From Takakia lepidozioides (Eukaryota; Plantae; Bryophyta), in NCBI GenBank assembly GCA_030704615.1, contig CM060731.1, forward strand, positions 81,096,001 to 81,160,000: a stretch of 64,000 nucleotides of DNA, given 5' to 3'. A program made the translations under genes and the position numbers. The notes below the pieces were generated by a model. The model did not search any database and was not told the DNA's origin. It saw nothing but the letters and a program-made list of their open reading frames with translations. This document shows, in pieces, positions 990-60,405 of this stretch (position 1 is its first letter; every line of letters begins with the position of its first letter).

Positions 990-1099
990 ACTGGACCTGA
1001 AGCCACCGTTTTTCTTACGGATAATCATCATGGGTGATACCCAGGTTGATGTTTCGACTGGAAAAGTGAACTCCGCGGCTAGCAACTTTTCGACTTCTG
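990..1099 (-). pseudogene. Old Ty3/Gypsy RT fragment, left half of the target site
   Basis: Minus strand reads EVEKLLAAEFTFPVETSTWVSPMMIIRKKNGGFR, a typical Gypsy RT N-terminus. It joins in frame to 13460-13620 when 1100-13459 and one TSD copy are removed. Confidence 0.85.
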
Positions 1100-1450
1100 T
1101 GTCAAGTTAAATAAGCACAGTGTGAAAACAGCTAGAATAAAACTAGTTATTTGTATTTAACACTTGGATTTAGGTCAAGTGTTAAATCAGGTGTCAAGTT
1201 TAGTTTGACACCTGGTCTGTCTTATCTTCACGAGAGCGGCAGTCGCGCAGCTCATCTCTCTCGAGTTGAGCCTGCGCGACCGAGCTCCTGCATGCGTTTA
1301 GATCTGAGTGTACTCATGATGGGAGTGTAGGTTGTTGTGGGGTGGAGTCCCCATAGCTTGGGGTGCCCCTGGCTCGACTTCTATTATAAAGAGTGATAGC
1401 GATGGATTTCATATGTTTTGTGTCAACAGTGTCTCTATGCTTGTTTATCA
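1100..1450 (+). repeat. Terminal repeat A1 (351 bp)
   Basis: Identical by eye to 13023-13373 (TGTCAAG...TTTATCA). Confidence 0.95.
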
Positions 1451-1467
1451 CTCGAGAGAGATGAGCT
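1450..1467 (+). promoter_or_regulatory. Putative self-priming primer-binding site
   Basis: ACTCGAGAGAGATGAGCT is the exact reverse complement of 1249-1266 inside A1. It overlaps the last base of the terminal CA. No TGG-starting tRNA PBS is present. Confidence 0.75.
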
Positions 1468-4071
1468 CTTACCTGTGAGTGCAAGGTAGGAGTTGAGGGT
1501 TAGCACTTGTACGATTACCTGTGTGTAAGTAGTGCTTGGTTTTAGAAGCTTAGAAAAAAAAAAAAAAACAAAATATGCAGGTTTCGATCAGCGTTGGTTC
1601 TGGCATGAGGCCGCCGGGCATGATGGAGCTACACTGCATGGAAGCAGCCTTCGTTTTGGTCGGTGAGGAGACATCGTGAGGCAGTACGCAGGCTGGTGGA
1701 GTGCATGGGTAAAGGATGCCAGAGCTGCGTAGTGGAGTGCGCCAACCCCGCTCTCCACCACAGGTGCCAGCAGTAGCTGCTGCATACCCTGAGGCCGCTC
1801 CCACCAGATGAGCCACTCCCCGGTGGCGCACAGTTGGTGCAACAGAGGAGGTTGCTCCAGTGCGAGATCATGTCAGAACGCGCGCTGCGAAGAGGCAGTG
1901 GTTGTTGTGACTAGGGTTGGGAGTTGAGGTAAGGGTACTGGGAGTGGGCGTGCCGCAAAGCAGACTCGGAATACAAAGGCTGTTGCTCAACCCAGGGCAG
2001 CCCCTGCACCAAAGCAGAGGGACTTAGGGAGGGCCAAGCAGGTTTCGTCCAAATCTCACTCCTCGGAGCAGCGGCGGTCTCAAGATCATTGTATTGCTGA
2101 AGACGACGTTGAAGCAGACTTAGATCTAGAGGAGAATAGAGCAGAGGAGTAGCAGGGGAGAAGTGTGACGCAGGCTTTCAACGCTGTCGGTGCCCATCAG
2201 CTTGTGAATTGCTGCTTCGGCCTCTGCTTGTGGAAGCAGTGCTGGTGTGAATGGGGGCTGCTAAGTGCTTTTACTGCAGGAATCTGAAGCATTTCATGCC
2301 TATGGTGAGGCCTTACGAAGATTTTGCAGCCTGATTCCAGGCCTAATTGCCATGTGCATTGGCGGCTATGTCTTCACACTGGAAATGTGGCTGGAATTGA
2401 ATGAATCCAGGGTGTTTTGATGCTTCTGGACCTGCACATTGAGGGCTATGCAGCCTGGCATCTGAAATTTAGGCCTGATTACCAGGCTTTTCATGCGCAA
2501 GTGCGGCTGGTTTCCCTTACCTTTGGACTGGATCCCCAGATGTAAGGGGGCTGGTGATGAAGCCATTCCAGCTCCTCCTGATGCTGAGTCGACTGATGAA
2601 GAAGAGGCTGTGGGCAGCCCTGCTCCTTCCACTTGCTTCCTAGTTCTCTGCAGCTCCATTCGGTGGTTCCAATCTCCCACACCGAACCAAGGGCTAGCGA
2701 AATAGAGGCAGCGACTGGGAAGGCTGAGCAGAACCAGGAGCTGGTAGGAGCTGACGGGCATCTCTGCTGCATGGTTTTGGAGATTGACGAGCATGCAAGC
2801 TGCTCATGTGCAACCCTTTGATCAGGTATTGGACCAAAACTTGCGATGGACTGAGTGCCCACCCTGGATGGCCTGTTTGGCATCCATAATTGTTTCCCCT
2901 GCGAGATATGAAGCCAATGTTGTAGGGGCTTACTGGCATGACCAAATCGTGGATCGACAAAAGGGCTCGGAAATCAGCTGCATGAACTAAGAATTCACCG
3001 CTACTTGACTACGTTTTCTGTTCACGATACCAGTGCCTTATGCGATGAGATCCGGTTTACTGGAGGACGAGGGGATTGCTACTGTCTGTCCTACACAGTA
3101 AGCAGCCATTGTGTTTGTAAGAGCATGACACTAGAAAATGGCTATGGATGAAAGATGTTTGGTATTCACCTCCAATCTGAGGTGAGTCCTTCCACAAATT
3201 CATGACCTGAATGGGAGCAGCGAATGGGGCAGTAGTGAATGGGAGTTCAAGTAGAGCCAGCGGCTGGAGAGCATGAGAGTGGGAGACTGTGGACCCACCA
3301 GGTGACACTTGGTGTATGAGCGGGATATGAGCTGAAGGGGCCCAGCTCACTACACGACCTGCTCGGTCTATGTTTACAATCCAAAACTTGAGGGCAGCCT
3401 GTGCCAACTCCATGTAAAGGCTTACACAATCAGTGATAGCAGATCTGTTGTTGCCACCTTGAAAAATCAACACGCTTGAAGGGCTGTAAGCGTTCTTGAT
3501 CAAGCTAGTTAGCTCTGGTGCTTTCCGGGGTTGCATTGTAAGTGCTCCTGCTTTTGTTGGGAATATTGGTGCAAAGGATTAAGGCTCGGCATAGCTACGG
3601 ATCTCGACTGGAGGAGAGCAGGTCACTGGTAACCAAGAGCTGTGGGGGGTGCATTTGTAAACACAACTGAAATCCTGATAGGGCACGTGGCCAGGGAACC
3701 TAGGATGCCATATAGAACTTAGGGAACCGGGAACCAGTTACCAGACATTTTGGGTGTAACTTTAAATTGTTAAACTTGAAAACCTTTTAAAAAAAAAAAA
3801 AAAAAAAAAAAAACCCTTTTTGATCTAATTTAAATGATTTAAAGCCAAAGTGGTCATATCTTTGTCAAATGGACTCTGTTTGACTCTGTTTTTGGGGGGA
3901 TGGCTGCAGAAAGGGGAAATCTACCTACCTAGACCTGGTTTCTGTTTTTGGGACTCTGCTAAAAATCTATGGAATTTTTAGAGTGTGAGTGTGCCATAAA
4001 ATATCCACAATCCTGTTTCTAGAACCTGTGCTGGCCTATATGAGAGACAAACCTGTGGATGTACTCCCTGT

Positions 4072-4821
4072 ATGGCTGGGGGAAATGAGGACGTAATTGA
4101 AGGGCAGGTCTCTTCTCTTAGCCTGTGCACACAAGGGGACAGGATTTATGTTTCCCAAGGAACTCAGACTGATTTGAGTGGAGAACAGTTGGACGAGTTG
4201 ATTGCATACTGGGAGTCAGGCATTAGCAGTAGACAACAGACTGCTGTAGTTGGCATTGAGGGCCTCAATATCGCCTTGGACAGTCAGAACTCTGTTGGAG
4301 CCAGCAGTTCTGCAGCTGTAGGTGAAATACCAAAGTGGGTGAAAGCTAGGCTTGGAACACAGCCAAAGACAGCCCCGGGGACCAAGGTGTTCAGCCACAA
4401 GGCCGTGGTGTACTGGAGCAGAGGAGCAGGAGCTGCACAAGTTTGTGCAATTAGACAGTGTTGCAGACGGACACGCTCTGCACAAGGCAACCACGAGCGG
4501 GGGTTCATTAGCGAGGACAAGTTTGTTCTGTTTGAAGGCGATGCAGTCATCCGCAATGAAGACACCCGCAACCGTCTCAAAGCTTTCGAGTTGAGAGACT
4601 ATCAGACCCTACCTTTGTTTTCTTTAGTGTTCAGTGAGCGGGAGATAGGGGAGTACTGCTTTGTCTCTACCTGGCAGAAAGAGGAGGAGGGTTGGTTAGA
4701 GCGAGCTACTGTAGCTTGGGACAAGGTTAGTGGCAGGTTTCTGGACATAGATATACCTCCTACACCTTACCATCAAGCAGAGCGAGGTACTTTGAGAGAA
4801 GTCTGGAAGTTGATAGCATAG
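4072..4821 (+). CDS. Accessory ORF of unknown function (249 aa) upstream of gag
   Basis: ATG-initiated open frame inside the element's 3.9 kb leader; no recognisable motif. Confidence 0.45.
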   Translation: MAGGNEDVIEGQVSSLSLCTQGDRIYVSQGTQTDLSGEQLDELIAYWESGISSRQQTAVVGIEGLNIALDSQNSVGASSSAAVGEIPKWVKARLGTQPKTAPGTKVFSHKAVVYWSRGAGAAQVCAIRQCCRRTRSAQGNHERGFISEDKFVLFEGDAVIRNEDTRNRLKAFELRDYQTLPLFSLVFSEREIGEYCFVSTWQKEEEGWLERATVAWDKVSGRFLDIDIPPTPYHQAERGTLREVWKLIA

Positions 4822-5339
4822 ATCAGGGTTAGATCTTGCTTGGGCGGGCTTCTATTCTTCCCCTCCATCTCTGTACTATTTTCATTACCTTGTACTTGTA
4901 GTTGCCAAAGCCTCTCTTGGTGGAGGCCAGTCAGTCCGGGGTTTTGGGCTGGGATATTCTGCAGGATCAGCGTTGCTGCTGGATTTTGGTGTGGGGGTGT
5001 TGATGTTTTGATTTCTTGTGTTTGGATCCCCCCAACACCTGCATGCTTGACTGTGCGCCATGTTGGTTTTGTGTGGGCGCTTGCTTTCATAGGGATTAGG
5101 CCGGATTTGATCACCGGTCAATCCTAGAGTATGCTGTCGGTGGTGAGGCTGGAGTGATGACCAGCAAGACCACCAGTGTTTCTTCTATGGTGAGGCTGGG
5201 TTGATGACCAGCCAACCATAGGAGTTCTTGCGGTGGATGCAGGTGCAGGTGCCCTGAGCCATTGGGATATGACCCTTAGACTGCAACAGGTGCCCACCCG
5301 TGTCACTATTAGATTAGTACTAGAGCCTTATAGTGTCAC

Positions 5340-8300
5340 GTGGAGGAGGTGCACATTGTGAGTGTCATTACGGAGTTACCCAAGGGTTTTGAGGGGAGTA
5401 CGGCTACAAGCAGTGACAGTGAGAGTGGGTTCACAAGACGAGGTATTCGGTTCAGACCACCTTCACCGCCACCCTCAACTACTGTAGCGTCAGACACAGA
5501 CTCGGAGGCTTCATCAACAGGTGTGCACTTTCATTCGCCATTGTTGTGGGACGACATGGAGGTGATGTATGGAGCTACCAAGGGGCCTCGTAGGTACTCT
5601 GGAGCTGTGGGCACAATCGAGTTGGATGACTTTATCCAGGAGTTCGACAGCTGGTGTGATTTGCAGCAGATGCGCAATCCACAGCTATTCACCCCATTCA
5701 TGGCGTGGAAGGGACTGTTCCAGCATTTGGAAGGCCCGCCTATGGACGATTACCACGAGTTCAGGCGAGGACATGAAGCAGAGATTGAGGAGTGGAGGAT
5801 GTATTGGTCACCTGACTACGTCTCCATTACTCGAGGCACGACGCGACCAGTAGCTGCATCAGTACCAATAGCTCCCACTGCCAGCACTAGTAGTGGAGCA
5901 AGTAGTGCTGGTACTTCTGAAGGTAGTACCAGTTCAAAAGGTGCTACTACTTCTCCTGCCACGACTACAACACATTTGCCAAGATTCAACCCGGTGGTGG
6001 AGTTCTTCCAGGAGTTGCGGAGGAACTACCAAGGTGTACGGACAGAGAAGCTGCGAAGTTTGCAAGACTTCCAGCGCAAACCCAATGAGAGCCTGCGAGA
6101 GGCGTACACTCGTATGAGGCGCTTGATAAGTGTGACCCAAGGGGTTACTGAAGCTCAGGCAATCCAGTTTTGGTATGGAATTCTGGACAAGGAGCTCAAG
6201 AGAAGGGTGCGAGATGCAACCCTGTTACAAGCAGCCCAACCCACATTAGCAGATGTGTTTCTGCTGGCTGAGCGGATTGAGCTCAACATGGTGGAGGAGC
6301 GAGTTATTACAATTGGATTTGGTAAGGACATGCCTGTACGGGGCACAGCTGTCAGCCCACAAACACAAGGGACTGCCCAACAGCGTGGTCAGGGGGGCAA
6401 GGTTGCCCAGCCCAAGTTCCATGGAGCTTACAGGGGACCTCAGGTGCAGAGGCCCGTGGCATCTTTTGCAGGCCAACAGCAACCAGGGGTGATATGTTGG
6501 ACATGTGGAGGACCCCATGTCAAGAGAGATTGCCCAGAGAGTGGCAGAAGGCCGGCACAAGCACAGCCTGCACAGTTGCAGTGTGGGCATTGTGGCAAGT
6601 ATGGGCATGGAGATGCCCAGTGTTATGACTTGCATCCTGAGTTGCGCCCAGGCCAGTTCCAAGGGAACAATGGTGGCCGGGGGCGAGGTGGACCAGCCCA
6701 GAGAGGACAAGGTGGTCGGGCACGAGGTGCAGGCCAAGGGCAAGCTCAACATGGCCAAGGACGCGGAGGTCAGGGCGTTGATCAAGGCATGGCCAACCGG
6801 CTTCAGCAGCTAGAGCAGAGGCTCGCTGCCATGGCTATAGCTCAGGCGGTACCGGCTCCCAGGCGGGATGGTCCACCTCCTGCTCCTGAGGGAGGAGATA
6901 TGGGAGGCATGGGATTTATGTGCGGAGCAGCACTACCACTAGAGCAGGTGGAGTCTGCTGCAGCCGTGACTCGAAAAGCAGCACGAGTTCTTGAGCCACG
7001 AGGTGCAGAGGTGGAATTGGATCCACAGCGTGGGGAGGCAAGCCGTCAGGTGAGGCTTCCCCAGTCATTCACATTGGCGGAGACAGCGTCAACGCCATCC
7101 ATGGCACCTAGTTCTCGCCCGACTGTTACCGAGGCGGAGGTTACTATGCCATTGGGGAGAGCTACACGTGCAGCACTGACACCTGCTACCAAGGCTAGTG
7201 CAGCCGGTGTGTTATTGGGAGCAGCCACCTCTGTGTGTCAAGCCCCATTGTTCTCGGCAACCATGATTGCGATGCCGCAGGTGAGGCCAGCTGCAGTGTT
7301 CAGACTAGCAGCAACACTCTGTGAGAGTGGGGAGGTCACTTTATCTTCTGCGGAGTTAGTGGAAGGTGTAGTGGCAGAGGGATCCTCGGATTTGAGGGTC
7401 AAGACTGCCACGGCTGCGCCCTGGCAAGCTGCAGCTGCCAGGTTGACGGAGCTGCCAGCTAGGCCAGCCATTGAGCGCGCCATGGTGACATCTGGAGTTG
7501 TCTTGTTAGACAACCAGGGAGGCATTTTCACTTTGAGTGGACCGGCAGGCAAGAAGTACCGGCCACTGCGGGTCTTGTTGGACTCAGGAGCTCAGCCACT
7601 GATGTTGGGCAGAGCTGCTATTGCAGGTTTGGGCCTCATGGAGGCGGATATGGAGCCTTGTCCTTTCCAGATACAGACATCTCTGGGAGGATCAGAGCAG
7701 GCTCGCGGCATGACACGGCATCAGTTGGCTATTAGACTGCAGCCGGATCATCCTGTAGATGGCTCAGTGATGCGAGCCAAGGCCATTGTGACAGACGCGG
7801 TCTCTTACGATGTCCTCGTTGGTGGGGCAGTGTTATACCCCATGGGCTTCACCCTGGATTTCTGGGAGGAGTCAGCATCCTACAGGCCTGGATGGCAGTC
7901 AGGGGATGGTCGCCGTGCACAGCTCCCTGTGACATTCATTGGGGGTATTGCAGCTGCTCAGCGGGGCAAGATGCCAACACTAGCCGCCTTCACAGCTGCA
8001 GTCAGCTGGCCTGGAGAGTTGCTGGAAGGCAATGCCCATGCAGAGGATGTGCCACCTCCAGCAGAGCAGGATGACATGCATGGTACGGCGGAGTTGCCCG
8101 CCATGGTTGCTCACACTCCGTTGTGGGGTACGAGCAAGGATTTGCAGCACGCTGCTGATGGACGGCTGCAACAAGCTTGGTTAGAAGCTTTTGTACCGTC
8201 AGGAGAGGAGGAGAGTGTGGTGATTGTACCAGGGCCACCTCAGTTGTCGCCATTGGACACCACACCTCTTGTGTGGCAGCGACCGGATGAAGGCATATGT

Positions 8301-9542
8301 CTTCTGGACTTATTTGGCGGGATCAGCACTGGATTGGCTGCAGTGCTGCAGGCAGGTGTACGAGTTCGACGTTACCTGTATGTGGAGAGGGATGAGACTG
8401 CACGACGCGTCTCACTGCGCCATGTTGCTCAGATGGTGCAGCAGCATCCTGAGTTGTTGCCGGTGTCTGCAGTTCGTGGATATCAGCAGGCCTTGCCAGC
8501 AGACATTGCGTTGCTGGGGGCGCAGGATTTGGAGCGGGTTGGCTCCATTGATCTGGTAGTGGCAGGTTGGCCCTGCCAAGGGCATTCATCAGCCGGGCAT
8601 GGCAATGGATTGCGAGACTCGAGGACGGGTCTGTTTTGGGAGATGGTGCGGATTTTGCGCCACTTGCAGCTTCATCAGGCTGTATCTCCGGCATACATCT
8701 TGGAGAATGTGCCACTGATGGGTGATTCTCGGGCCAGGGTGATGGCCAGTGTGCATCAAGTCCGGTCGTGGCTTGGGTCAGCAGTATTGCTGGATGCAGC
8801 TGCACTGGGGTCACGGGCTCATCGTCCACGACTATGGTGGACTAACTTGATGCCACCCGCACTGCTCAAGCGTGCATTTGATGGGGTGCATCGGCCAGCA
8901 CACCTCACCGTGGATGGCATTTTGGACACAGGAAGGCAGTCTCAACGTGTGAGACACGATGACCGTTCGCCTTTGGCAGTGGTCAACAGAGTGGGTCAAC
9001 CACGAGCAGCATTACCTACACTGCTCAGCTTCCCAGGATCCCATGCTTTTCGGGATGGTGGACCTGGCCTCCTGTGGGATGCTCAGTTGCAACAGTTAGT
9101 GGAGCCTAATGCCGACGAGCGAGAGCGGGCTATGGGGTTTTCCACTGGGACCACGGCGGTGCCTTCCCTTTCTGAGGCATCACGTCGTCAGGTGTTGGGG
9201 CAAGCAATGGATCTCAATTGCTTGACCTGGATTGTCAGCTTGGCTATGGCTGAGCAACGTAGAGTGCGGAGTGCACTTCCCTTGATGGTCTCTCTGCCTA
9301 CCGAGACGGTACAGGCAGCGAGTGGGGGCGAGCCGGTGAGGACCACGAGGTGTAGACATCCATGGCACATGTGGGAGGTGCTCGAGGTTCAGAGGGAGTT
9401 GGCAGCGAAGGCAGCTGTGATGGATGAGGTTGGGGATTCTTCTCGGGATGAGGAGGTTCTCAATGATGAGATGATGGGGCAGGATGAGGCCTTGTCATTG
9501 ACTGAGCAGGAAGGGGGTACTGCTCAAGAGGTTGCAGCATAG
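5340..9542 (+). CDS. Gag - aspartic protease - C5 cytosine DNA methyltransferase polyprotein (start uncertain; first ATG 5556)
   Basis: Zn knuckles CWTCGGPHVKRDC (~6495) and CGHCGKYGHGDAQC (~6582). Protease LLDSGA (~7581). DNMT motifs DLFGG, YVERD, GWPCQG (PCQ 8571-8579), ILENV, RPRLWWTNL, ERERAMGF, RQVLGQAM. Confidence 0.93.
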   Translation: MEEVHIVSVITELPKGFEGSTATSSDSESGFTRRGIRFRPPSPPPSTTVASDTDSEASSTGVHFHSPLLWDDMEVMYGATKGPRRYSGAVGTIELDDFIQEFDSWCDLQQMRNPQLFTPFMAWKGLFQHLEGPPMDDYHEFRRGHEAEIEEWRMYWSPDYVSITRGTTRPVAASVPIAPTASTSSGASSAGTSEGSTSSKGATTSPATTTTHLPRFNPVVEFFQELRRNYQGVRTEKLRSLQDFQRKPNESLREAYTRMRRLISVTQGVTEAQAIQFWYGILDKELKRRVRDATLLQAAQPTLADVFLLAERIELNMVEERVITIGFGKDMPVRGTAVSPQTQGTAQQRGQGGKVAQPKFHGAYRGPQVQRPVASFAGQQQPGVICWTCGGPHVKRDCPESGRRPAQAQPAQLQCGHCGKYGHGDAQCYDLHPELRPGQFQGNNGGRGRGGPAQRGQGGRARGAGQGQAQHGQGRGGQGVDQGMANRLQQLEQRLAAMAIAQAVPAPRRDGPPPAPEGGDMGGMGFMCGAALPLEQVESAAAVTRKAARVLEPRGAEVELDPQRGEASRQVRLPQSFTLAETASTPSMAPSSRPTVTEAEVTMPLGRATRAALTPATKASAAGVLLGAATSVCQAPLFSATMIAMPQVRPAAVFRLAATLCESGEVTLSSAELVEGVVAEGSSDLRVKTATAAPWQAAAARLTELPARPAIERAMVTSGVVLLDNQGGIFTLSGPAGKKYRPLRVLLDSGAQPLMLGRAAIAGLGLMEADMEPCPFQIQTSLGGSEQARGMTRHQLAIRLQPDHPVDGSVMRAKAIVTDAVSYDVLVGGAVLYPMGFTLDFWEESASYRPGWQSGDGRRAQLPVTFIGGIAAAQRGKMPTLAAFTAAVSWPGELLEGNAHAEDVPPPAEQDDMHGTAELPAMVAHTPLWGTSKDLQHAADGRLQQAWLEAFVPSGEEESVVIVPGPPQLSPLDTTPLVWQRPDEGICLLDLFGGISTGLAAVLQAGVRVRRYLYVERDETARRVSLRHVAQMVQQHPELLPVSAVRGYQQALPADIALLGAQDLERVGSIDLVVAGWPCQGHSSAGHGNGLRDSRTGLFWEMVRILRHLQLHQAVSPAYILENVPLMGDSRARVMASVHQVRSWLGSAVLLDAAALGSRAHRPRLWWTNLMPPALLKRAFDGVHRPAHLTVDGILDTGRQSQRVRHDDRSPLAVVNRVGQPRAALPTLLSFPGSHAFRDGGPGLLWDAQLQQLVEPNADERERAMGFSTGTTAVPSLSEASRRQVLGQAMDLNCLTWIVSLAMAEQRRVRSALPLMVSLPTETVQAASGGEPVRTTRCRHPWHMWEVLEVQRELAAKAAVMDEVGDSSRDEEVLNDEMMGQDEALSLTEQEGGTAQEVAA

Positions 9543-12500
9543 CAACCACGGGACGCGTCCTCTATCTCTAAGCCCACTGGACTTAAGGTTGCAGTTACGG
9601 AGGACAATTGGGAGCCTGATATTGGACCCATTGTCACCGGAGGAGAGAGACAACGTATACGGCGGTTCCTGAGGGCTTACAGGAATTGCTTTGCCTTCAG
9701 TTTGAAGGACTTGGGAGCACTGAAGGGTCAAGAGATCCGTATTGAGTTGGCCACTGACACGCCAATCTTTCGGAGACCCTATAGATACAGTGACATGGAG
9801 AGGTCTTTGATTCAGATGAGGACTCAAGATCTCTGGGAGGCAGGTTTGGTGGAGCTCTCTGGTGGAGAGTATGCTTCAGCCACAGTGATGCCAGCTAAGA
9901 AGGATGTCTATGGCAATTGGACGGAGAGACGTATGTGCGGTGATTACCGGCCTGTAAATCGTCAGACCAAGTCCGATAGGTATGCCATGCCAACACCAGA
10001 GGAGATCTTTGATGCCATTGGGCATTCCAAGGTCTTTAGCACGTTGGATTTACGATCCGGATATCACCAGTTGCCGATCAAGGAGGCGGATAAGCAAAAG
10101 ACGGCATTCTGGGGGATCAATGAGCACGGGAAGGATTGCCTATACCAGTGGCGGTTCTTACCATTTGGGCTTAAAAACGCTCCCGCTGAGTTTCAAAGAG
10201 TCATGGACAGGATTCTAGCAGGGGTGGAGTTTGCTCGGTGCTACATAGATGACATCATCATCTTTAGTGCTACGGTGGAGGAGCATGAGAGACACCTTCA
10301 GGGGGTATTTGAGCGCTTGAGGACGCACGGATTGAAGTTACATCCGGGCAAGTGCAAGTTTTTCCACAACCAGATTGAGTATCTGGGTCACATGATATAT
10401 CCTGGAGGATTGGGGGTACAGCAGACTAAGGTAGAGTCCATTGCACAGGTTCCACGCCCCACGGATGTGAGCCGAGTTCGAGCTTTCATGGGGTTAGCAA
10501 ACTATTACAGACGGTTTGTTAAGGGATTTAGTGCCATTGCAAAGGCTCTAACCAAGCTGACCAAGGTGGACCAGGAGTGGCAGTGGGAAGATGAGCAAGA
10601 ACAAGCTTTTCAAGAGCTCAAGGCGAGGTTGACCTCGGCGCCCATCTTGAGACGACCTATCAGGGGGCGTCCTTTTCAGCTGCATACAGATTGGAGCATG
10701 CTGGGGCTTGGAGCGGTGCTCACACAGGTGGATGATGAGGGAAGAGAGTTCGTAGTGGCTTATGCTAGCCGCTCGAACAATGCTGCAGAGTCTAAGTATA
10801 GCTCATATGAGGGAGAATGCTTAGCTGCAGTGTGGGCCGTGGCACACTTCAGGTGCTATTTATACGGCAATCTCTTCACCCTTGTCACGGATCACCAACC
10901 ACTCAAGTGGTTGATGGAGTCAGACAAGCTTACGGGGAAGCTTGCACGGTGGGCACTCATCCTTCAAGAGTATGACTTTCAGGTGGTGCATCGACCGGGT
11001 TTGGTCAATCGAAATGCAGATGGGTTGAGTCGCAATCCATGCACGAGCCAGCAGGATGACACTGGAGCTCGGTGGCATGGTGAGACGGACGAGGAGATGG
11101 TGCCCGGATGGCATGCATCTGCATTTCTGTGTATCTTGGCAGCGGAAGGCCAGGTTGGACCTACAACAGGGATGACTGTAGATCAAGTGTCTGAGGACCC
11201 TGAGGCCAGCAATGAGCAGGGTGGCGCCAAAGATATACATGAGGATTCAGTTGTGTTGGACTACCTCCGCAGTGGAGACACGGCAGCCAATATGACTGCC
11301 AAGGAGAGGGATGGATCCTACAACGAGCCAAGAGGTTCAGGTGGGAGGGGACACACCTGCTCCGAGTGTGGGAGGATGGTCGAGTGAGGATTGTGCCTCA
11401 CCCAACACAGCGGGCACGGTTAGTGCGGCATGCCCATGAGGAGTTGGGGCATTTTGGGGTGCGACGCACTCATAGTCTACTGCAGGGGCAGTATTGGTGG
11501 CGTGGTATGCACACAGAGGTACAACACTTTGTGGCTAGGTGCATGGTGTGTGACAGGGTGCGTGCTTCATTCAACGCCCCTACTCCACAATTGCACCCTC
11601 TTCCGATCATGGGATTGGGCTACAGGTGGAGTCTTGACTTCGCAGGGCCGTTGCCACTGACCATGCGCCACAACAAGTACGTGTTGGTGATGGTGGAGCA
11701 CTTCTCCAAGTGGATTGAATTGGTTCCATTGCCTGATAAGGCTAGTGAGGGAGCTGCGTATGCATTCATGGATTGTGTGCTTAGCCGATTCGGTGCTCCA
11801 GCTGAGGTACTCACGGACCAAGGGAGAGAGTTCTTGGGGGAGTTTCAGGCTTTGTGTGACAAGCCTTGATAGACCACTGCACCACTTCTCGGGATCATCC
11901 TGAAGCCGATGGCTTGGCAGAGAGAGTTGTTCAGACAGTAAAGAGGGGTTTGCGCAAGTATGGCTTGCAGAAGGGACACCTAGGAGATTGGGACCTTCAG
12001 TTACCCTGGTTAGCCATGGGCTACAGGTTCAGCAAGCAAGCATCACTTGCCTCTTTCTCACCATACTTTCTTCTCTTTGGCCGAGAGCCGGATTTGCCTA
12101 CATCCATTCGCAGAGAAGCTGCTACAGTTCTTAACCTTGACGATCCGGACGTGTGGGCACGTGCATGTGAGCAGCGTGCAGAGTTGTTCAAGAGAGTCAT
12201 GCCCATGGCTTTCGAGAACCTTGCCATTGCACAACACCGTGATACGTTGAGGTATGCTACCATACGTGGTGGGGGCTATCGTCCTGGGGTTCGGAGATTC
12301 AACCCTGGTGACTATGTCTATCTGCAGCAGACTGCTCCTACGACCCTGGATGTGACTGCAGGACGTGTTATTTTGAGGGTTCGAGAGGTCTTGCCCTCAG
12401 GCGTCTTGGTCTTGGAGGGTCGGGATGGCATCACTTGGAAGGACCATGTGCGTAATTGTGCGCCATGTCACCTTCTGAATGTCGATGGCAGGATTGACCC

Positions 12501-12675
12501 AAACCTGGCAGTGGTCTCTGCAGGTTTGAGGTGCATGTTGTGTGGGTCTGCTAAAGGGGCAGCCACCATGCTGGTATGTGATCGGTGCTCTAGAGGTTGG
12601 CATATGGGATGCTTGACTCCACCTCTTGAGATGGTTTCGGATGGGGATTGGTTATGTCCACATTGCATTGGATAG
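9543..12675 (+). CDS. Pol: RT - RNase H - DDE integrase - PHD finger (in frame after TAG; two 1-bp deletions near 11313 and 11862)
   Basis: LPFGLKNAP and YIDD (10242-10253). RNase H LHTDWS..YEGECLA..VTDHQPL. Integrase HEELGH..CMVC, SLDFAG, LTDQG, GLAER. C-terminal C4HC3 CMLC..CDRC..WHMGC..WLCPHC. Confidence 0.93.
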
Positions 12676-12924: not shown

Positions 12925-12934
12925 AGGGGGGCGA
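12925..12934 (+). promoter_or_regulatory. Polypurine tract
   Basis: AGGGGGGCGA immediately before B1; conserved in copy 2 at ~41818-41827. Confidence 0.7.
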
Positions 12935-13020
12935 TTGTGCTAGACTACTTTATTGTGCATATATGTGTGGTGTGGTTTGGACAGCGATGTAGTTGTGTAG
13001 CGATATGGATGCGCACGACA
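12935..13020 (+). repeat. Repeat B1 (86 bp)
   Basis: TTGTGCTAGAC...CGCACGACA, identical to 13374-13459. Confidence 0.95.
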
Positions 13021-13022
13021 GC

Positions 13023-13373
13023 TGTCAAGTTAAATAAGCACAGTGTGAAAACAGCTAGAATAAAACTAGTTATTTGTATTTAACACTTGGATTTAGGTCA
13101 AGTGTTAAATCAGGTGTCAAGTTTAGTTTGACACCTGGTCTGTCTTATCTTCACGAGAGCGGCAGTCGCGCAGCTCATCTCTCTCGAGTTGAGCCTGCGC
13201 GACCGAGCTCCTGCATGCGTTTAGATCTGAGTGTACTCATGATGGGAGTGTAGGTTGTTGTGGGGTGGAGTCCCCATAGCTTGGGGTGCCCCTGGCTCGA
13301 CTTCTATTATAAAGAGTGATAGCGATGGATTTCATATGTTTTGTGTCAACAGTGTCTCTATGCTTGTTTATCA
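13023..13373 (+). repeat. Repeat A2 (351 bp)
   Basis: Identical to 1100-1450; separated from B1 by GC. Confidence 0.95.
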
Positions 13374-13459
13374 TTGTGCTAGACTACTTTATTGTGCATA
13401 TATGTGTGGTGTGGTTTGGACAGCGATGTAGTTGTGTAGCGATATGGATGCGCACGACA
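13374..13459 (+). repeat. Terminal repeat B2 (86 bp)
   Basis: Identical to B1 and followed by the TSD TCTG. Confidence 0.95.
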
Positions 13460-13620
13460 TCTGTTTTGATGAGCAATGCCAAATTTGGGTTCACCCTCAT
13501 CTCTCGTCGTGGTGGTGGTGTAGCTCCCGGAATCAAGGGAATAAAGTGCATAGCCACATACGATGGCACCCCTTTTAATTCGGTGTAGGACCATGCGAAG
13601 ATGTCTTGAAATTCTTTGAA
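13460..13620 (-). pseudogene. Old Ty3/Gypsy RT fragment, right half of the target site
   Basis: Minus strand FKEFQDIFAWSYTELKGVPSYVAMHFIPLIPGATPPPRREMRVNPNLALLIKT continues into EVEKLL at 1099. Confidence 0.85.
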
Positions 13621-33890: not shown

Positions 33891-36800
33891 AGCTGTGTGG
33901 GCCTGTGCTGGTCTGTGGTGGCCCGTGTTGACTGTGGATGGCCTGTGCTGACTTGTGGAGGCAATGGTGGACTAAGGACTGGCATGTGGTCTGGAAGGCC
34001 GAATTTTGAAGCTCGTGGAGGGCGGTTGAGGAGTATCTTCATGATATTCCCATGGTCATGCAAGTTCAGGTGTAGGCTATGTTAGGAACTTAGTATTCCA
34101 AACCATAAGCCGCAAAAGGTTCTCTACCCGGTTACCTTGTGGAGAGGGGGTTAGGGACATGTTCATGACCGGTTGAGTGTCACACGGAGGTGCCACTAGT
34201 TGCTGGGGACAGTGCCGGTTCGAGCACTAGCGATACTAGTGGGTACACGAGACGAGGTGTGCGGTTTAGGCCACCTTCACCTCCTGTGTCTTCCACGGAG
34301 GTTCTGATTGGCTTGTGAATCAGGAGGGGCTCATACCGGCGGTGCAAGTTGTTTCTTTGCCATTGTTGTGGGACACAATGGAGGAGATGTATGGAGCTAC
34401 CAAGGGGCCACGAAGTACTCTGGGCGGTGGGCACCATTGAGTTGGATGATTTTATCCAAGAGTTTGATAGTTGGTGTGATTTGCAGCAAATGCGCAATCC
34501 ACAACTATTTACGCCGTTCAATGGCATGGAAAGGCTGTTTCAGCAACCTTGAGGGGCCGCCTATGGATGATTACCATGAGTTCAGGCGGGGGCATGAGGT
34601 TGAGATCGAGGAGTGGAGGATGTACTGGTCACCCGACTATGTCTCCATCACTAGGGGCACTAGAGCACGAGGGCAGTGGCTACACCTGCCGCTGCAACCA
34701 CCGGCAGCTTCTTTCGCAAGTAGCGTGGACTGGTGGTACAGTAGCTACGACCATCCACCCAAGCCACTACAGCACCAGCACTAGCACCCGTGCCTGCCTC
34801 AACCCTGTTGTGGAGTTTCTTCGAAGAGTTGAGAGGGAAACTACCAAGGGGTGAGGACAGAGAAGTTGCGGAGCTTGCAAGAGTTTCCAACGGAAGCCGA
34901 CCGAGAGCTTGAGGGAGGCTTTCACTCGCATGAGGCGCTTGATAAATGTACCCAAGGGGGTTACGGAAGCTCAGGCAGTCCAATTCTGGTATGGGATATT
35001 GACAAGGAGGAGCTGAGGAGAAGGGGTGCGGGATGCACTCTCCTACAATCGGCCCAACCCACCTTAGCAAATGTGTTTTTGCTGGCAGAGCGGATAGAGC
35101 TCAACATGGTGGAGGAACGAGTGATGGGGGCATTGGATGCTAAGGAGACACCACGGGGTAGTGGTGCTCCTAGCCAACCACTACCTCAACGTGCTCAAGG
35201 CAACAAGGGGGCTCAGGTGAAGCTCAGGAGGGCAAGAGAGGGAGAGAGAACTCAGATGCAGGGGTCTCTCCCTTCATTTGCTGGCCAACAACGGGCGGAT
35301 GTGGTGTGCTGGACATGTGGAGGACCCCATGTCAAGAAGGATTGCCCAGAGGGAGGCAAAGGGCCGGCACATGCACAGCCTGCACAGTTGCAGTGTGGGC
35401 ATGGTGGCAAAGCACGGGCATGGAGAGGCCCCAGTGTTATGGTTTGCATCCTGGTGTGCGCCCAGGCCAGTTCAAGGGAACAATGGTGGCCGGGGGCGGG
35501 AGGGGAGCAGCCCAGAGAGGACGGGTGGGGTGGCCAGCCACGAGGTGCAGGCCAAGGGCAAGCTCAACGTGGCCAAGGACGCGGAGGTCAGGGTGTTGAC
35601 CAAGGCATGGCCAAACGGCTTCAGCAGCTAGAGCAGAGGCTCGCTGCCATGGCTACAGCTCAGGTGGTACCGGCTCTAAGGCCGGATGGTCCACCTCCTG
35701 CTCCTGAGGGAGGAGATATGGAGGCATGGGATTCATGTGTGGAGCAGCACTACCACTAGTGCAGGTGGAGTCTGCTGCAGCCGTGACTCGAGGAGCAGCA
35801 CGAGTTCCTGAGCACGAGGTGCAGAGGTGGAGTTGGATCCATAGCGTGGGGAGGCAAAGCCGTCAGGCTAGGCTTCTCAGTCATTCACATTGGCGGAGAC
35901 AGTGTCGACGCCATCCATGGCACCTAGTTCTCGCCCGACTATTACCGAGGCGGAGGTTACTATGCCATTGGGGAGAGCTACACGGGCAGCCCCACTACCT
36001 AGTGTTGCCAAGGCTACGAAGCTAGTGTGTTGTTAGGAGCGGCCACCTCTGTGTGCCAGGCTCCATTGGTTCTCGGCTACATGATTGCGACGCCGGGATA
36101 AGACGACAGCTGAGGTGTTCAGGCTGGCGCTACACTCTGTGAGAGTGGGGAGGTTACTTCCTCTTCTGCGGAGATAGTGGGAGGTGTTAGTGCCGGAGGG
36201 ATCCTCGGATTTGAGGGTCAAGACTGCCACGGCGGCGCCATGGCAAGCTGCGCTGCAGGTTGATGGAGGCTGCCAGCTAGGCCAGCCATTGAGCGCGCCA
36301 TGGTGACACCTGGAGTTGTCATGTGAGACAAACCAGGATGGCATTTCTGTTTGAGTGGACCGGCAGGCAAGAGTGGTACCGGCCACTGCGAGTCTTGTTG
36401 GACTCGGGAGCTCAGCCACTGATGCTGGGCAGAGCTTGCTATTGCAGGTTGGGCCTCACGGAGGCGGATATGGAGCCTTGTCCTTTCCAGATACAGACGT
36501 CTCTGGGAGGATCGGAGCAGGCTCGGGCATCATGACACGGCATAAGTTGGCTATCAGACTACGGCCGGATCACCTACAGATGGCTCAGTGATGCGAGCCA
36601 AGGCCATTGTGACAGATGCAGTCTCATACGATGTCCTGGTTGGTGGGAAGTGTTGTACCCCATGGGCTTCACCTGGATTTTTGGGAGGAGTCAGCTCCTA
36701 TAGGCCTGCATGGCAGTCAGGGGAGGGCCGGCGTGTGCAGCTCCTGTGACGTTCATAGGAGGAGTGCGGTTGCCCAGCGAGGCAAGATGCCGACACTAGC

Positions 36801-39800
36801 AGCATTCACAGCGGCAGTGAGTTGGCCTAGAGAGTTGCTTGAGGGCAATGCTCATTCAGAGGATGTACCACCTCCGGGAGAGCAGGATGACATGTATGGT
36901 ATGGCGGAGTTGCCTACCATGGTTGCTCAGACTCCATTGTGGGGGGCACGAGCAAGGATTGCAGCGGGATGCTGATCGGCGGGGTGCAACCAAGCCTGGG
37001 TGGAGGCTTTTGTACCGTCAGGAGAGGAGGAGAGTGTGGGGATTGCACCAGGACCACCTCAATTGTCTCCATTGGACACCACACCTATTGGGGGCAGTCT
37101 CCGGATGAAGGCATTTGTCTTCTGGACTTGTTTGGCGGGATCAGCACCGGATGGCTGATGTGTTACAGGCAGGTGTACGAGTTCGGCGTTACCTGTATGT
37201 GGAGAGGGATGAGACTGCACGACGCGTTTCACTTCGCCATGTTGCTCAGTTGGTGCCGCGGTACCCTGAGGTGTTGTCGGTGTCTGCAATTCGTGGATAT
37301 CAGCAGGCCTTGCCAGCAGACATTTCGTTGCTGGGGGCGCAGGATTTGGAGCGGGTTGGCTCCATTGATCTGGTAGTGGCAGGTTGGCCCTGCCAAGGGC
37401 ATTCATCAGCCGGGCATGGCAATGGATTGCGAGACTCGAGGTCGGTCGGGTCTGTTTTGGGAGATGGTGCGGGTTTTGCGCCACTTGCAGCTTCATCAAG
37501 CTGTATCTCCAGCATACATCTTGGAGAATGTGCCACTGATGGGCGATTCTCGGGTCGGGCCAGGTGATGGCCAGTGTGCATCAAGTCCGGTCGTGGCTTG
37601 GGTCAGCAGTGTTGCTAGATGCCGCTATAGTGGGGTCACGGGCTCATCGTCCACGGCTATGGTGGACTAACATGATGCCACCCGCCACTGCTCAAGCGTG
37701 CATTTGATGGGGTGCAGCGGCCAGCACATCTCACAGTGGATAACATTCTGGACACAGGGAGGCAGTCTCAACGTGTGAGAGACACGATGACCGTTCGCCT
37801 TTGGCAGTGGTCAACAAGGTGGGGTCAACCACGAGCAGCATTTACCTACACTGCTCAGCTTCCCAGGATCGCATGCTTTCCGGGATAGTGGACCTGGCCT
37901 CCTGTGGGAGCTCAGTTGCAGCAGTTAGTGGAGCCTAATGCTGACGTGCGTGAGCGGGCAATGGGTTTTACACCTGGTGACCACGGCGGTGTCGTCTCTT
38001 TCTGAGGCATCACGTCGTCAAGTGTTGGGGCAAGCAATGGATCTCAATTGCTTGACCGGATTATCAGCTTGGCTCTAGCTGAGCAACGCAGAGTGCGGAA
38101 TACACTTCCCTCAATGGTCTCTCTGCCTACCGAGACGGTCCAGGCAGGGAGTGGGGGGCGAGCATATGAGGACCACGGGGTGCATGCATCCATGGACACA
38201 CGTGGGAGGTGCTCGAGGTTCAGAGGGAGTTGGCAAGCCAAGGCGGCTGCTGTGATGGATGAGGTTGGGATTCTTCTCGGGTTGAGGAGGTTCTCAATGA
38301 TGATGATGAGGGGCAGGATGAGGCCTTGTCATTGACTGAGCAGGTAGGAGTACTGCTCAAGAGGTTGCAGCATAGCACCACGGGGACGCGTCCTACCTCT
38401 CTAAGCCCACTGGACTTAGGTTGTAGTACGGAGGACAATTGGGAGCCTGACATTGGACCCATTGTCACCGGGAGGAGAGAGACGACGTATACGGCGGTTC
38501 CTGAGGGCTTACAGGAATTGCTTTGCCTTCAGTTTGAAGGACTTGGGAGCACTGAAGGGTCAGGAGATCCGTATTGAGTTGGCCACTGACACACCAATCT
38601 TTTCGGAGACCCTATAGATACAGTGACATGGAGAGGTCTTTGATTCAGATGAGGACTCAAAGATCTCTGGGAGGCAGGCTTTGGTGGAGCTCTCGGTGGA
38701 GAGTATGCTTCAGCCACAGTGATGCCAGCCAAGAAGGATTGTCTATGGCCATTGACGGAGAGACGTATGTGCGGTGATTACCGGCCTGTTAAATTGTCAG
38801 ACCAAGTCCGATAAGTATGCCATGCCAACACTAGAGAATCTTTGATGCCATCGGGCATGCTAAGGCCTTTAGCACTTTGGATTTACGATCCGGATATCAC
38901 CAGTTGCCAATCAAGGAGGCGGACAAGCAAAGACGGCATTCTGGGGGATCAATGAGCACGGCAAGGATTGCCTATATCAGTGGCGGTTCTTACCATTTGG
39001 GCTTCTAAGAATGCTCCTGCAGAGTTTCAGAGAGTCATGGATAGGATTCTAGCAGGGTGGACTTTGCTCGGTGCTACATAGATGACATCATCATCTTTAG
39101 TGTTACGATGGAGGAGCATGAGAGAGAACCTTCAGGTGGTATTGGAGCGCTTGAGAGCGCACGGATTGAAGTTGCATCCGGGGAAGTGCAAGTTTTTCAC
39201 AACCAGATTGAGTATCTGGGTCACATGATATATCCTGGAGGATTGGGGGTACACAGACTAAGGTAGAGGCCATTGCACAAATTTCCACGCCACCACGGAT
39301 GTGAGCCGAGGTTCGAGCTTCAGGGGTTGGCAAACTATTATAGACGGTTTGTCAAGGGATTTAGTACCATGCAAAGGCTCTAACCAAGCTGACCAAGGTG
39401 GACCAGGAGAGAGTGGCAGTTGGAAGATGAGCAGGAACGAGCTTTTCAAGAGCTCAAGGCGAGGTTGACCTCGGCGCCTATCTTGAGACGCCTATCAGGG
39501 GGCGTCCCTTTCAGCTGCATACGGATTGGAGCATGCTGAGGCTTGGAGCGGTGCTCACACAGGTGGATGATGAGAAGAGAGTTCGTAGTGGCTTACGCTA
39601 GCCGCTCTCTCGAACAACGAGCAGAGGCTAAGTACAGCTCATATGAGGGGAGTGCGAAGCTGGCAGTGGGGCCGTGGCACACTTCAGGTGCTATCTATAC
39701 GGCAATCTTTTCACCCTTGTCACGGATCACAGCCACTCAAGTGGTTGATGAGTCAGACAAGCTTACGGGGAAAGCTTGCATGGTGGGCACTTATACTCCA

Positions 39801-40020
39801 GGAGTATGACTTTCAGTTGTGCATCGACCCGGGTGGTCAATCGGGATGCGGATGGATTGAGTCGCAATCCATGCATGAGCCAGCAGGATGACACTGGAGC
39901 TCGGGGCATGGTGAGACGGACGAGGAGATGGTGCCGGGATGGCACGCATCTGCATTTTTGTGTATCTTGGCATCGGGAGGTCAGATTGGACCTACAACAG
40001 GGATGACTGTAGACGGAGTG

Positions 40021-40063
40021 TAAACCCTAAATCCTAAACCCTAAACCCTAAACCCTAAACCCT
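40021..40063 (+). repeat. Interstitial plant telomeric repeat, (TAAACCC) x ~6
   Basis: TAAACCCTAAATCCTAAACCCTAAACCCTAAACCCTAAACCCT; absent from copy 1 at ~11190. Confidence 0.92.
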
Positions 40064-41833
40064 GAGGTAGTGATGAGCTAGGTGGTGCCAGAGATATACA
40101 TGAGGAGGATTCGGCTGTGTTGGACTACCTCCGCACGGGAGACATGGCAGCATTGTGACTGCCAAGGAGAGGGATCGGATCCTGCAACGAGCCAAGAGGT
40201 TCAAGTGGGAGGGGGATACACCTACTTCGAGTGTGGGAGGGGTGGGTCGGTCGGTGGTAAGGATTGTGCCTCACCCCACACAGCGTGCACGGTTAGTGCG
40301 GCATGCCCATGAGGAGTTGGGGCATTTTGGAGTGCGACGCACTCACAGTTTACTGCAGGGGCAGTATTGGTGGGTGGTATTGTATGCATACAGAGGTGCA
40401 ACAGTTTGTGGCTAGGTGCATGGTGTGTGACAGGATGCGTGCTTTTCATTCAACGCCCCTACCCCACAGTTGCATCCTTTACCTATCATGGGATTGGGCT
40501 ACAGATGGAGTCTTGACTTCGCAGGACCGTTGCCACTGACTATGCGCCACCACAGATATGTGTTGGTGATGGTGGTGGAGCACTTCTCCAAGGGATTGAG
40601 TTGGTTCCATTGCCTGACAAGGCTAGTGAGGGGCTGCGGCATTCTTCTTGTGGATCGTTGCTTAGCCGATTTGGTGCTCCAGTTGAGGTACTCACGGACC
40701 AAGGGAGAGAGTTCTTGGGGAGTTTGGGAGTTTCAGGCTTTGTGTGATAAAGCCTTGATAGACCACCGCACCACTTCTCGGGATCATCCTGAGGCCGATG
40801 GCTTAGCAGAGAGAGTTGTTCAGACGGTGAAGAGGGGTTTGCGGCAAGTATGGCTTGCAGAAGGGACACCTAGGAGATTGGGATCTTCAGGTTTCCTTGG
40901 TTAGCCAGGGGCTACAGGTCAGCAAACAAGCATCACTTGCCTCCTTCTCACCATATTTTCCTTCTCTTTGGCCGAGAGCCGGATTTGCCCTGCAGCCATT
41001 CGTAGGGACACTGCTCAAGTCCGTAACCTTGACGATCCGGACGTGTGGGTACGTGCATGTGATCAGCGTGAGAGTTGTTCAAGAAAGTCATGCCCATGGC
41101 TTTTTGAGAACCTTGCCATTGCAAACACCCGTGATACGTTGAGGTATGCCATAACGTGGTGGAGGATATCGTCCTGGGGGTTCGGGTGGTTTAAGCCCTG
41201 GTGACTATGTTTATTTGCAGCAGACTGCTCCTACGACTCTGGATGTTACTGTAGGGCGTGTTATTCTGAGATTCGAGAGGTGTGCCCTCAGGGGTCCTGA
41301 TCTTAGAGGGTCGGGATGGCCATGACTTGAAAGACCATGTGCGTAATTGTGCGCCATGTCACCTTCCCAATGTCGATGGCAGAGTTGACCCAAACTTGGC
41401 AGTGGTACCTGCAGGTTTGAGGTGCATGCTCTGTGGGTCTGCCAAAGGGGCAGCCACCATGCTGGTGTGTGATCGGTGCTCAAGGGGTTGGCATATGGGA
41501 TGCTTGAATACCACCTCTTGAGAAGGTTCCTGACGGAGAGATGGTTGTGTCCACACTGGTGGGATAGTGGCAGTGGACATGACTGGAAGGCAGCTAACAA
41601 GACATGGGAGGCCAAGCTCATAGGAGTCAATACATGAGATCCCAAGCTCAAGTTCACAGGTTTGCAAGACGGCGACTAACGATGGGGCAACTCTTGCACC
41701 CGGCCTCTTGATCTATCGAGTTTGAGTGTGTAGGGATAGTGGTGGAGGACTTAGTGAGGCTATGGTCACTATCACATCTTGTGGCTACCTGGACTTAGAG
41801 GGACCTAAGCACCAGCTGGGGGGGCGATTGTGT

Positions 41834-41945
41834 AGACTAGTGACTGCCATAGTGGGCAGCGTAGTGGCAGCCTAGTGACTGACTAGTTGTAGCCTAGTGG
41901 TTGGACTAGTGGCTGGACTAGTGGTAGACTAGTGGTATACTAGTG
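41834..41945 (+). repeat. (GA)CTAGTGG tandem expansion inside B of copy 2
   Basis: Repeated CTAGTG units replace the single CTAGAC region of copy 1 B. Confidence 0.75.
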
Positions 41946-42021
41946 TGTGGTGTGCACATGTGTTGTGTGGTTTTGGAACAACGATTTGTAGTTGTTGTAG
42001 CGATATGTAATGCGCCCGACA

Positions 42022-60364: not shown

Positions 60365-60405
60365 TTAGAGTTCAGTACGCGATCGTCCTTGGGATTGGCC
60401 TCATC

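Follow-up and report, generated by a model that had tools for sequence, protein, structure and literature searches.

Why should a retrotransposon of a land plant carry an apparently intact cytosine methyltransferase? This question is raised by a stretch of 64,000 nucleotides, called the window here, of Takakia lepidozioides (Bryophyta; assembly GCA_030704615.1, contig CM060731.1, positions 81,096,001 to 81,160,000). At 1100-13459 it contains a retrotransposon (copy 1) with the domain order gag, protease, DNA methyltransferase (DNMT), stop codon, reverse transcriptase (RT), RNase H, integrase and PHD finger; a second, truncated copy (copy 2) lies further downstream. The order protease-RT-RNase H-integrase, with HHCC and a DDE core, is that of Ty3/Gypsy. 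Judged by its sequence, the element is a land-plant branch of the KnitGypsy-Dnmt3 lineage of Klebsormidium nitens, as a variant with a conserved stop before the RT. Coordinates refer to the window (Table 1).

The DNMT domain was identified by several methods. A score of 47.4 bits was obtained against PF00145 (cut-off 22, E 2.3e-12), the check proposed in a preliminary description of this DNA. All seven motifs listed there were found in order and in one frame: I (DLFGG, 8307), II (YVE, 8379), IV (GWPCQG, 8565), VI (ENV, 8703), VIII (HRPRLWW, 8820), IX (ERERAMGF, 9117) and X (VLGQA, 9192). They lie, as described, between the DSG motif of the protease (7581) and the RT (YIDD, 10242), and the FxG motif for S-adenosylmethionine, the catalytic PC, ENV, RxR and motifs IX-X are all present. 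A single-sequence search of solved structures gave DNMT3A as top match (E 1e-10). With a profile of 35 homologues DNMT3A (6e-23) and DNMT3B (6e-21) ranked before DRM2 (3e-9), DNMT2 (3e-7) and HhaI (1e-6), and the predicted model (pLDDT 89) matched the fold of DNMT3A best (E 5e-19, TM 0.71/0.83). The proposed resemblance to DNMT3 is supported by both profile and fold, which identify a complete, non-permuted, DNMT3-like C5 methyltransferase; the DNMT tree was built from retroelement DNMTs only. The catalytic domain of mammalian DNMT3A is nearest in sequence and fold, with motifs I-X identically ordered, but shares only about 22% identity, and the window domain is about 40 amino acids longer. No PWWP or ADD match was found in ORF1 by Pfam scan. 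The gag part of ORF1 is recognized by a weak PF03732 match, and the protease region of the window copy gave no Pfam match of its own in the scan of the window.

Two other origins were rejected. Plant DRM enzymes require motifs VI-X before I-V, whereas the window domain runs from I to X. Bacterial or phage origin, or contamination, was rejected as well: 13 viral and four Streptomyces loci match weakly, with 30-49% over short stretches. The only strong match filed as prokaryotic was L094 (1-9285) from a cyanobacterial bin, which proved to be a complete Gypsy element of this lineage. Its contig looks circular, the ends overlapping by 127 bp, and its presence there is likely due to eukaryotic contamination.

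The claim of an intact methyltransferase inside a Gypsy polyprotein holds for the domain of copy 1 but not for the polyprotein, since a TAG (9540-9542) separates the domain from the RT. Likewise, the domain recurs in copy 2 as described (37110-38083, 93.5% identical to copy 1), but as assembled it is not intact there, with 10 indel events within the DNMT. In total 121 indel events were counted in copy 2, 58 of them in homopolymer length. Five of six motifs checked are unchanged in this copy and one residue of motif IX is altered. No stop was found in 1010 codons compared with copy 1, and the ratio of nonsynonymous to synonymous substitution rates (dN/dS) was 0.11-0.27 per domain. The indels of copy 2 look like uncorrected read error more than decay.

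The domain could also be a fragment captured from a host gene, neutrally decaying or serving merely as a DNA-binding spacer; this possibility was considered with data on selection. Among 63 elements holding both DNMT and RT-RNase H, the catalytic Cys is kept in 62 of 63, the Glu of motif VI in 62 of 62 and the two Arg of motif VIII in 60 and 61 of 63, with a median column identity of 0.32. Thus, the catalytic residues are near-invariant despite about 60% divergence among elements. Between the two window copies dN/dS was 0.25 for the DNMT and 0.21 for the RT (nucleotide alignment); neutral decay, named in the preliminary description as the outcome that would speak against a functional domain, is therefore not what was seen. 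For six between-family pairs values of 0.08-0.21 were calculated for the DNMT with synonymous sites near saturation, and a seventh pair was saturated. Furthermore, 29 of 40 variant sites examined (of 134) fall in the DNMT, and 19 of these 29 are synonymous (26% expected, P 1e-5). A fragment without function would fit the frameshifts of copy 2 and the ratios among recent copies of one family (three pairs; DNMT 0.44-0.66, RT 0.09-0.34). However, post-insertion change is expected to dominate dN/dS of recent-copy pairs. The conserved residues, the low ratios between families and window copies and the correlation of DNMT and RT distances given below largely refute this explanation, to which we assign hardly any probability. 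These data indicate that the DNMT domain is under purifying selection, as the RT is.

The locus had been viewed as an isolated case, but the lineage spans green plants. Among the matches listed, DNMT homologues were named from the land plants Marchantia polymorpha, M. paleacea, Riccia sorocarpa, Calypogeia fissa and three Sphagnum species, and from the algae Klebsormidium nitens, Closterium and Scenedesmus; ferns, lycophytes, hornworts and seed plants were absent from the named matches in these lists. Of the named relatives, proteins of liverworts come closest to the element; together with PPR fragments and a streptophyte-type AP2/ERF ORF elsewhere in the window, this points to a land plant, probably bryophyte-like, as host. 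In Marchantia polymorpha full-length ORF1 copies were found (Mp4g09160, Mp5g06330, Mp5g06860 and MpVg00370) with all 12 key residues checked kept; they are annotated as hypothetical proteins. MpVg00370 and a further full-length ORF1 copy, MpVg00540, are located on the male sex chromosome. A Coleochaete transcript encodes a stand-alone RT-RNase H-integrase-PHD protein.

Relationships were examined with a quick IQ-TREE analysis of RT-RNase H (46 rows chosen from 141) with a weak root. The window element groups with Marchantia, Calypogeia and metagenome loci (SH-aLRT 95), then with Coleochaete (90). A clade of 35 rows adds Closterium, Klebsormidium and Scenedesmus (SH-aLRT 96), so the suggested kinship with the Klebsormidium element was recovered. 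Two architectures were observed: in all named streptophytes with full models the DNMT precedes the RT, whereas in a large group (P0167, P0172, P0203 and others, some with G-patch) it lies between RNase H and integrase. The latter group forms one clade (99). The full order RT-RNase H-DNMT-integrase-PHD occurs in 36 of 445 proteins, with Scenedesmus as the sole named one. DNMT and RT distances correlate with r 0.63 over 63 rows, 0.885 for 17 with the DNMT before the RT and 0.40 for 46 with the DNMT after RNase H. Correlation and clades fit one old capture followed by long co-inheritance. As relatives occur across bryophytes and green algae, the capture likely predates land plants; transfer of the element between hosts is possible, the root being weak. 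In a further Gypsy polyprotein, P0423, protease and RT are separated by a Dam adenine methyltransferase, and a PHD finger precedes the integrase. The RT tree places this polyprotein beyond the DNMT clade, and it resembles the DAM-LTRs in the available text of bioRxiv 10.64898/2026.05.21.726589.

In the original report (de Mendoza et al. 2018, PMC5890265) the DNMT of KnitGypsy-Dnmt3 lies within the Pol ORF and is described as having been acquired along the K. nitens lineage. According to the parts of that paper available to us, it likewise has a non-permuted DNMT3-like domain in the Gypsy pol region under purifying selection, and the legend of its Fig. 4 calls its repeats 'DIRS-like'; the window element has split repeats. 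The K. nitens model KFL_009030040, with the order protease-DNMT-RT-RNase H-integrase, is 46% identical in the DNMT, and K. nitens RTs belong to the 35-row clade; we assume that these models correspond to the published copies. In contrast to the description of KnitGypsy-Dnmt3 in the text available, the window lineage extends to bryophytes and further green algae, and a conserved stop splits its DNMT from the RT. The same text makes no mention of readthrough, self-priming, a PHD finger, target duplications or an inner attachment site, and neither 'Marchantia' nor 'Sphagnum' occurs in three supplementary files of PMC5890265.

Related systems differ in other respects. Methyltransferases and chromatin readers are also found in the long terminal repeat (LTR) elements called DAM-LTRs and EpiLTRs, but these have adenine methyltransferases and DNMT4-related DNMTs; 'streptophytes (Gypsy-DNMT3)' are named there as distinct, in a main text that, as far as available, contains no land plants, bryophytes or Marchantia (bioRxiv 10.64898/2026.05.21.726589). 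In its accessible part PMC12344493 speaks just of 'streptophytes', and the element is not reported in those of PMC11244446, PMC11982613, PMC12885004 and bioRxiv 363937, the last of which describes derepression of many transposable elements in Marchantia met1 mutants. In agreement with the preliminary description, no characterised land-plant DNMT3 retrotransposon was found in the literature searched, which covered few subscription papers and no Repbase Reports. Two further groups were rejected from partial descriptions. Troyka has CG..CG termini and a 3-bp duplication and occurs in animals only (PMC12440569), whereas the element has TG..CA and 4 bp. Phygy is described with NCGN targets and a short internal region (PMC6317226); here none of six targets is NCGN and the 5' region measures 3.9 kb.

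The stop between DNMT and RT is conserved. The end of the DNMT and the start of the RT were both covered in 57 of 98 loci. An in-frame TAG or TAA followed by CAR-YY was present in 53 of these 57 (background 0.8%); two had it in another frame and two were without it. The loci are non-independent, coming mostly from one family and few samples, so that about four families and the window are distinct. The hexamer is CAACCC in 44 cases, with nine others. Locus L036 has TAG CAG TTA between open frames of 1369 and 1047 amino acids, L094 has TAG CAA TCA before an unbroken second frame of 1047 amino acids, and the full-length Marchantia ORF1 models end 78 amino acids beyond the DNMT domain. CAR YYA is the essential readthrough signal of tobacco mosaic virus (TMV), giving about 10% readthrough, and the same source names gypsy elements of rice as candidates for it (PMC2754532, in part). 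The window sequence UAG CAA CCA matches the TMV-type consensus UAG CAR YYA as given there, but is placed between DNMT and RT, and in the relatives CAA CCC is the commonest context. The earliest Met downstream of the stop in the window is already within the RT region, which favours readthrough over re-initiation. Thus, the stop is likely read through. With a readthrough stop downstream of it, the DNMT would be produced at Gag levels.

In copy 1, RT and RNase H continue in the frame of ORF1. The integrase region is interrupted by two frame breaks, near 11,310 and 11,860, so that integrase and PHD finger are not in one frame with them. Since a chromovirus needs a chromodomain after the integrase and the element has a PHD finger there, assignment to the chromoviruses was rejected. 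The top matches of this finger among solved structures were CHD4, PHF12, KDM5B/A, BHC80, UHRF1 and AIRE, and a Trp two residues ahead of the zinc His is absent in 149 of 149 PHD fingers of the family. The fingers of the matched proteins are readers of unmodified H3K4, and we take the finger of the element to be such a reader as well.

The ends of the element do not have the canonical Ty3/Gypsy layout of one complete identical LTR per end. Instead a repeat A of 351 bp and a repeat B of 87 bp are arranged as A...B-gc-A-B with TG..CA termini. No differences were found in 438 bases of A and B repeats (95% upper bound of divergence 0.7%), which agrees with the recent insertion proposed earlier. Two other loci, L048 and L065, are laid out likewise, with A/B identities of 92.1/93.8% and 88.4/88.2%. 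The motif ACA-(GC/GT/AC/AT)-TGTCA was found at the inner junction of L006, L018, L036, L048, L065, L073, L094 and of a second L031 element. This divergent element (L031, 15684-17213) has an end of purine tract-B-gt-A-B and adjoins a DNMT-bearing copy. A 4-bp target duplication is exact in five of six elements (window, L048, L035, L074 and L043), L027 having three of four positions; the chance is about 0.005 each, and L065 was omitted as 5'-truncated. TG..CA termini and a duplication of this size agree with Ty3/Gypsy, for which 4-6 bp are expected. Of the distinct insertions, 16 in number, five continue into A, while the other 11 stop after one B.

The primer site does not start with the TGG of tRNA-primed sites. 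It pairs perfectly over 17 nt with a segment within A1; in 20,000 random positions the maximum was 9 nt, and the fold gave z -4.3. Relatives show perfect primer pairs of 16, 15 and 12 nt, each of different sequence (L045 and L047/L048, L036, L094). Hence, the element is predicted to prime itself rather than to use a tRNA. Tf1 and Tcn1 chromoviruses are also without tRNA primer site and predicted to be self-priming (PMC6317226, in part), but these have chromodomains and ordinary LTRs, and the chromovirus found in the window is outside the clade. No Rfam match at gathering score was obtained for window 1-15000.

With a purine tract ahead of B and a primer site after A, the LTR would by LTR logic be B-gc-A. 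The integrated form would then be a circular permutation opened at the inner CA-gc-TG, and together with the 4-bp duplications this layout predicts integration from a circle by the DDE integrase. If each strand is cut 3' of CA, 2-nt 5' overhangs result, like those of ordinary end processing. Split direct repeats of the layout A1...B1-A2-B2 are known from Ngaro and PAT elements; the window element shares this layout but differs by its TG..CA termini and duplicated target sites. Frames of at least 100 amino acids in window 5300-13460 and in L036 were searched for a tyrosine recombinase; none was detected, and DIRS, Ngaro and PAT were ruled out by this absence. Elements of the DIRS class have a tyrosine recombinase, whereas the window element has a DDE integrase and 4-bp duplications. 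A DNMT3-like domain is shared with SymbioDIRS-Dnmt3, a DIRS-class retroelement of dinoflagellates (PMC5890265, in part). The integrase of foamy virus cleaves the palindromic junction of 2-LTR circles into processed ends (PMC1180852, available part); there the site is the LTR-LTR junction, while here a fixed site within the LTR would be cut and the integrated form is permuted.

From these features a mode of action of the DNMT can be proposed, to which we lean without much conviction. Gag-protease-DNMT would be produced in excess, enter the particle and be cleaved there, and the DNMT would methylate the cDNA or circle of the element before insertion by the DDE integrase-PHD protein. The RNA would start near 1249 in A1 and end in A2. 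Most ribosomes would halt at the UAG and a minority pass, so that Gag-protease-DNMT exceeds RT and integrase (about tenfold in TMV; PMC2754532, in part), and the protease would release the DNMT within the particle. The RNA 5' end would prime the minus strand and the purine tract the plus strand at B, giving a B-gc-A...B-gc-A cDNA whose ends may be joined in a 2-LTR circle or by an end-to-end jump of the RT. At the inner CA-gc-TG the DDE integrase would cut each strand behind CA, giving 2-nt 5' overhangs and an insertion of the form A-internal-B-A-B; one-LTR circles would yield A-internal-B copies without 3' R, and the single-B ends may come from these. The DNMT would act on the extrachromosomal DNA, and the PHD finger, being of the kind for unmodified H3K4, could steer insertion away from active promoters. 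The broader picture is a DIRS-like life cycle rebuilt from Gypsy parts, in a lineage as old as green plants, with self-priming, an excess of DNMT3 from a leaky stop, joined and methylated cDNA and a PHD-guided cut at the inner CA-nn-TG. As a whole we hold this combination to be possible but doubtful.

Besides the ratios among recent copies, several observations weigh against the proposed mode of action. The context CAACCC in 44 of 53 loci is one base off CAR-YYA and is often followed by ATG, so that re-initiation or splicing is possible. Perfect primer pairing reaches just 5-10 nt in 10 of 13 metagenome loci, and single-B ends may equally reflect B1 x B2 recombination or assembly collapse. The ratio of observed to expected CpG is 0.50 in copy 1 and 0.53 in copy 2, with 0.47-0.65 in the window background and 0.81 in the chromovirus; a distinct CpG content of the family, for which a check had been suggested, was thus not found. 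C-to-T differences between the copies (CG 0.084, CHG 0.081, CHH 0.055) are only mildly raised for CG and CHG, and no private methylation signature is visible. Finally, the domain of KnitGypsy-Dnmt3 gave no methylation in yeast, a result called inconclusive by the authors because DNMT3B failed too (PMC5890265, in part).

This yeast result would also suit an enzyme that is active on another substrate, i.e. the RNA of the element or an RNA:DNA hybrid in reverse transcription, or one that needs a particle co-factor. The position on the Gag side, which places the enzyme with RNA, and the inactivity of heterologous retrotransposon DAMs (bioRxiv 2026.05.21.726589, available text) point in the same direction. 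Sequence and fold, however, are of DNMT3 type and far from DNMT2 (6e-23 versus 3e-7), and the related SymbioDIRS-Dnmt3 methylates DNA, at CG and de novo in yeast (PMC5890265, section 10; part of the paper). We consider another substrate, or the need for a co-factor, quite unlikely.

The chlorophyte-type architecture with the DNMT between RNase H and integrase is a further point against the proposal, as a supply of DNMT at Gag levels would not be universal. It suggests instead that the DNMT may act at integration, on the new insertion and flanking host DNA, carried there by the integrase-PHD protein, by analogy with animal DNMT3A and its reader of H3K4me0. The 36 RT-RNase H-DNMT-integrase-PHD proteins, including the Scenedesmus pol, have the DNMT fused directly upstream of integrase-PHD, and a PHD finger resembling what we take to be readers of unmodified H3K4 is retained in both architectures. 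In the land-plant form, on the other hand, the stop keeps the DNMT together with Gag and separate from most integrase; for this element such an action seems unlikely, though not far-fetched.

Methylation of the same extrachromosomal DNA might also serve another purpose. Instead of shielding the cDNA, it could let new copies arrive pre-silenced, lowering the cost for the host and preserving the lineage, a self-restraint raised in the discussion of the 2018 paper (PMC5890265, in part) and compatible with the long persistence of the lineage across green plants. The family is nevertheless very abundant in sequencing runs of the host, with a summed contig depth of about 1e6 versus less than 1e3 for the unique right flank, which is a depth and not a copy number. 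Self-restraint as the purpose is very unlikely in our estimation.

The role of retrotransposon DNMTs has been undecided since 2018 because the hosts, Symbiodinium and Klebsormidium, are genetically hard to work with. With full-length ORF1 copies in Marchantia polymorpha the question becomes testable in a model plant. The capture shifts from a single alga to a lineage across bryophytes, streptophyte algae and chlorophytes, and many possible de novo methyltransferase genes are added to bryophyte genomes. As the elements have no LTR pair at their ends, inventories of DNMTs and LTR finders would likely overlook these genes. For the predicted route, in which a circle would be opened at an internal site by a DDE integrase, no description in a retrotransposon was found in the literature searched. 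If true, this would be a eukaryotic DDE retroelement with a circle as normal integration substrate, and new copies would arrive methylated.

Table 1 Features of the two element copies in the window
Feature	Position	Strand	Remarks
Left target site duplication, TCTG, 4 bp	1096..1099	.	recurs at 13460-13463
Repeat A1, TG...CA; inferred distal U3 + R + U5	1100..1450	+	351/351 identical to A2
17-nt segment complementary to primer site; putative self-primer and RNA 5' end	1249..1265	+	
Primer-binding site immediately 3' of A1, self-priming type	1451..1467	+	17 nt perfect pairing
Long 5' region	1468..5333	+	about 1500-3780 thinly covered in family contigs
Orphan frame, 273 aa	4000-4821	+	in well-covered part of family
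ORF1: gag, Cys/His knuckles, protease, DNMT3-like domain	5334..9542	+	open frame stop to stop, 1402 aa; first ATG 5556
Aspartic protease region, LLDSGAQP (DSG motif 7581)	7551..7880	+	Asp_protease_2 matches in homologues
DNMT3-like C5 cytosine methyltransferase domain	8292..9254	+	catalytic Cys codon 8574
ORF1 terminator TAG	9540-9542	+	same stop across relatives
TAG CAA CCA, stop in the frame of the RT, readthrough-type context	9540..9548	+	conserved in family
ORF2: RT 9756-10400, RNase H 10581-10985, HHCC and DDE integrase from about 11400, PHD finger 12532-12666	9543..12675	+	
Polypurine tract immediately 5' of B1	12925..12933	+	same tract precedes B in related loci
Repeat B1, inferred proximal U3, ends CA	12934..13020	+	
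Inner junction CA-gc-TG joining B1 to A2; predicted attachment site of the integrase	13019..13024	+	
Repeat A2	13023..13373	+	
Repeat B2, ends CA = element end	13373..13459	+	87/87 identical to B1
Right target site duplication, TCTG, 4 bp	13460..13463	.	
Copy 2, 5'-truncated, single B end, TAG kept before RT	34238..42021	+	many small indels

Within the long 5' region, window 1500-3780 is flanked by poly(A) runs and has a contig depth hundreds of times below that of the rest of the element; possibly it is an insertion or a segment of a rare subfamily. A 3-kb contig of run X5 matches window 1671-2149. Run X5, which is RNA by guess only, shows thin coverage of the DNMT. For the orphan frame no homologue was detected in Pfam, Atlas or local sequences.

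The remaining parts of the window hold further repeats and genes. A chromovirus-type Gypsy pol (RT-RNase H-integrase-SH3-chromo, minus strand; 55805-60350 and 60340-61599) is enclosed by inverted repeats of about 730 bp (92%). Just beyond these repeats the opposite strand carries a gag ORF; the layout looks rearranged. Degenerate PPR fragments on both strands (31500-33300) are split by copy 2 and resume near 42030-42260. Short GC-rich tandem arrays were found at 33290-33900, 41840-41950 and 45263-47010, one of them within the B repeat of copy 2. A 500-N assembly gap (42675-43174) accounts for the long but artefactual 'ORFs' at 42590-44208. Two long frames at 19136-22787 (minus strand) with a weak SWIM match possibly belong to a MuDR-type transposase, and a single-frame ORF for an AP2/ERF transcription factor of streptophyte type is located at 48444-50051 (minus strand).

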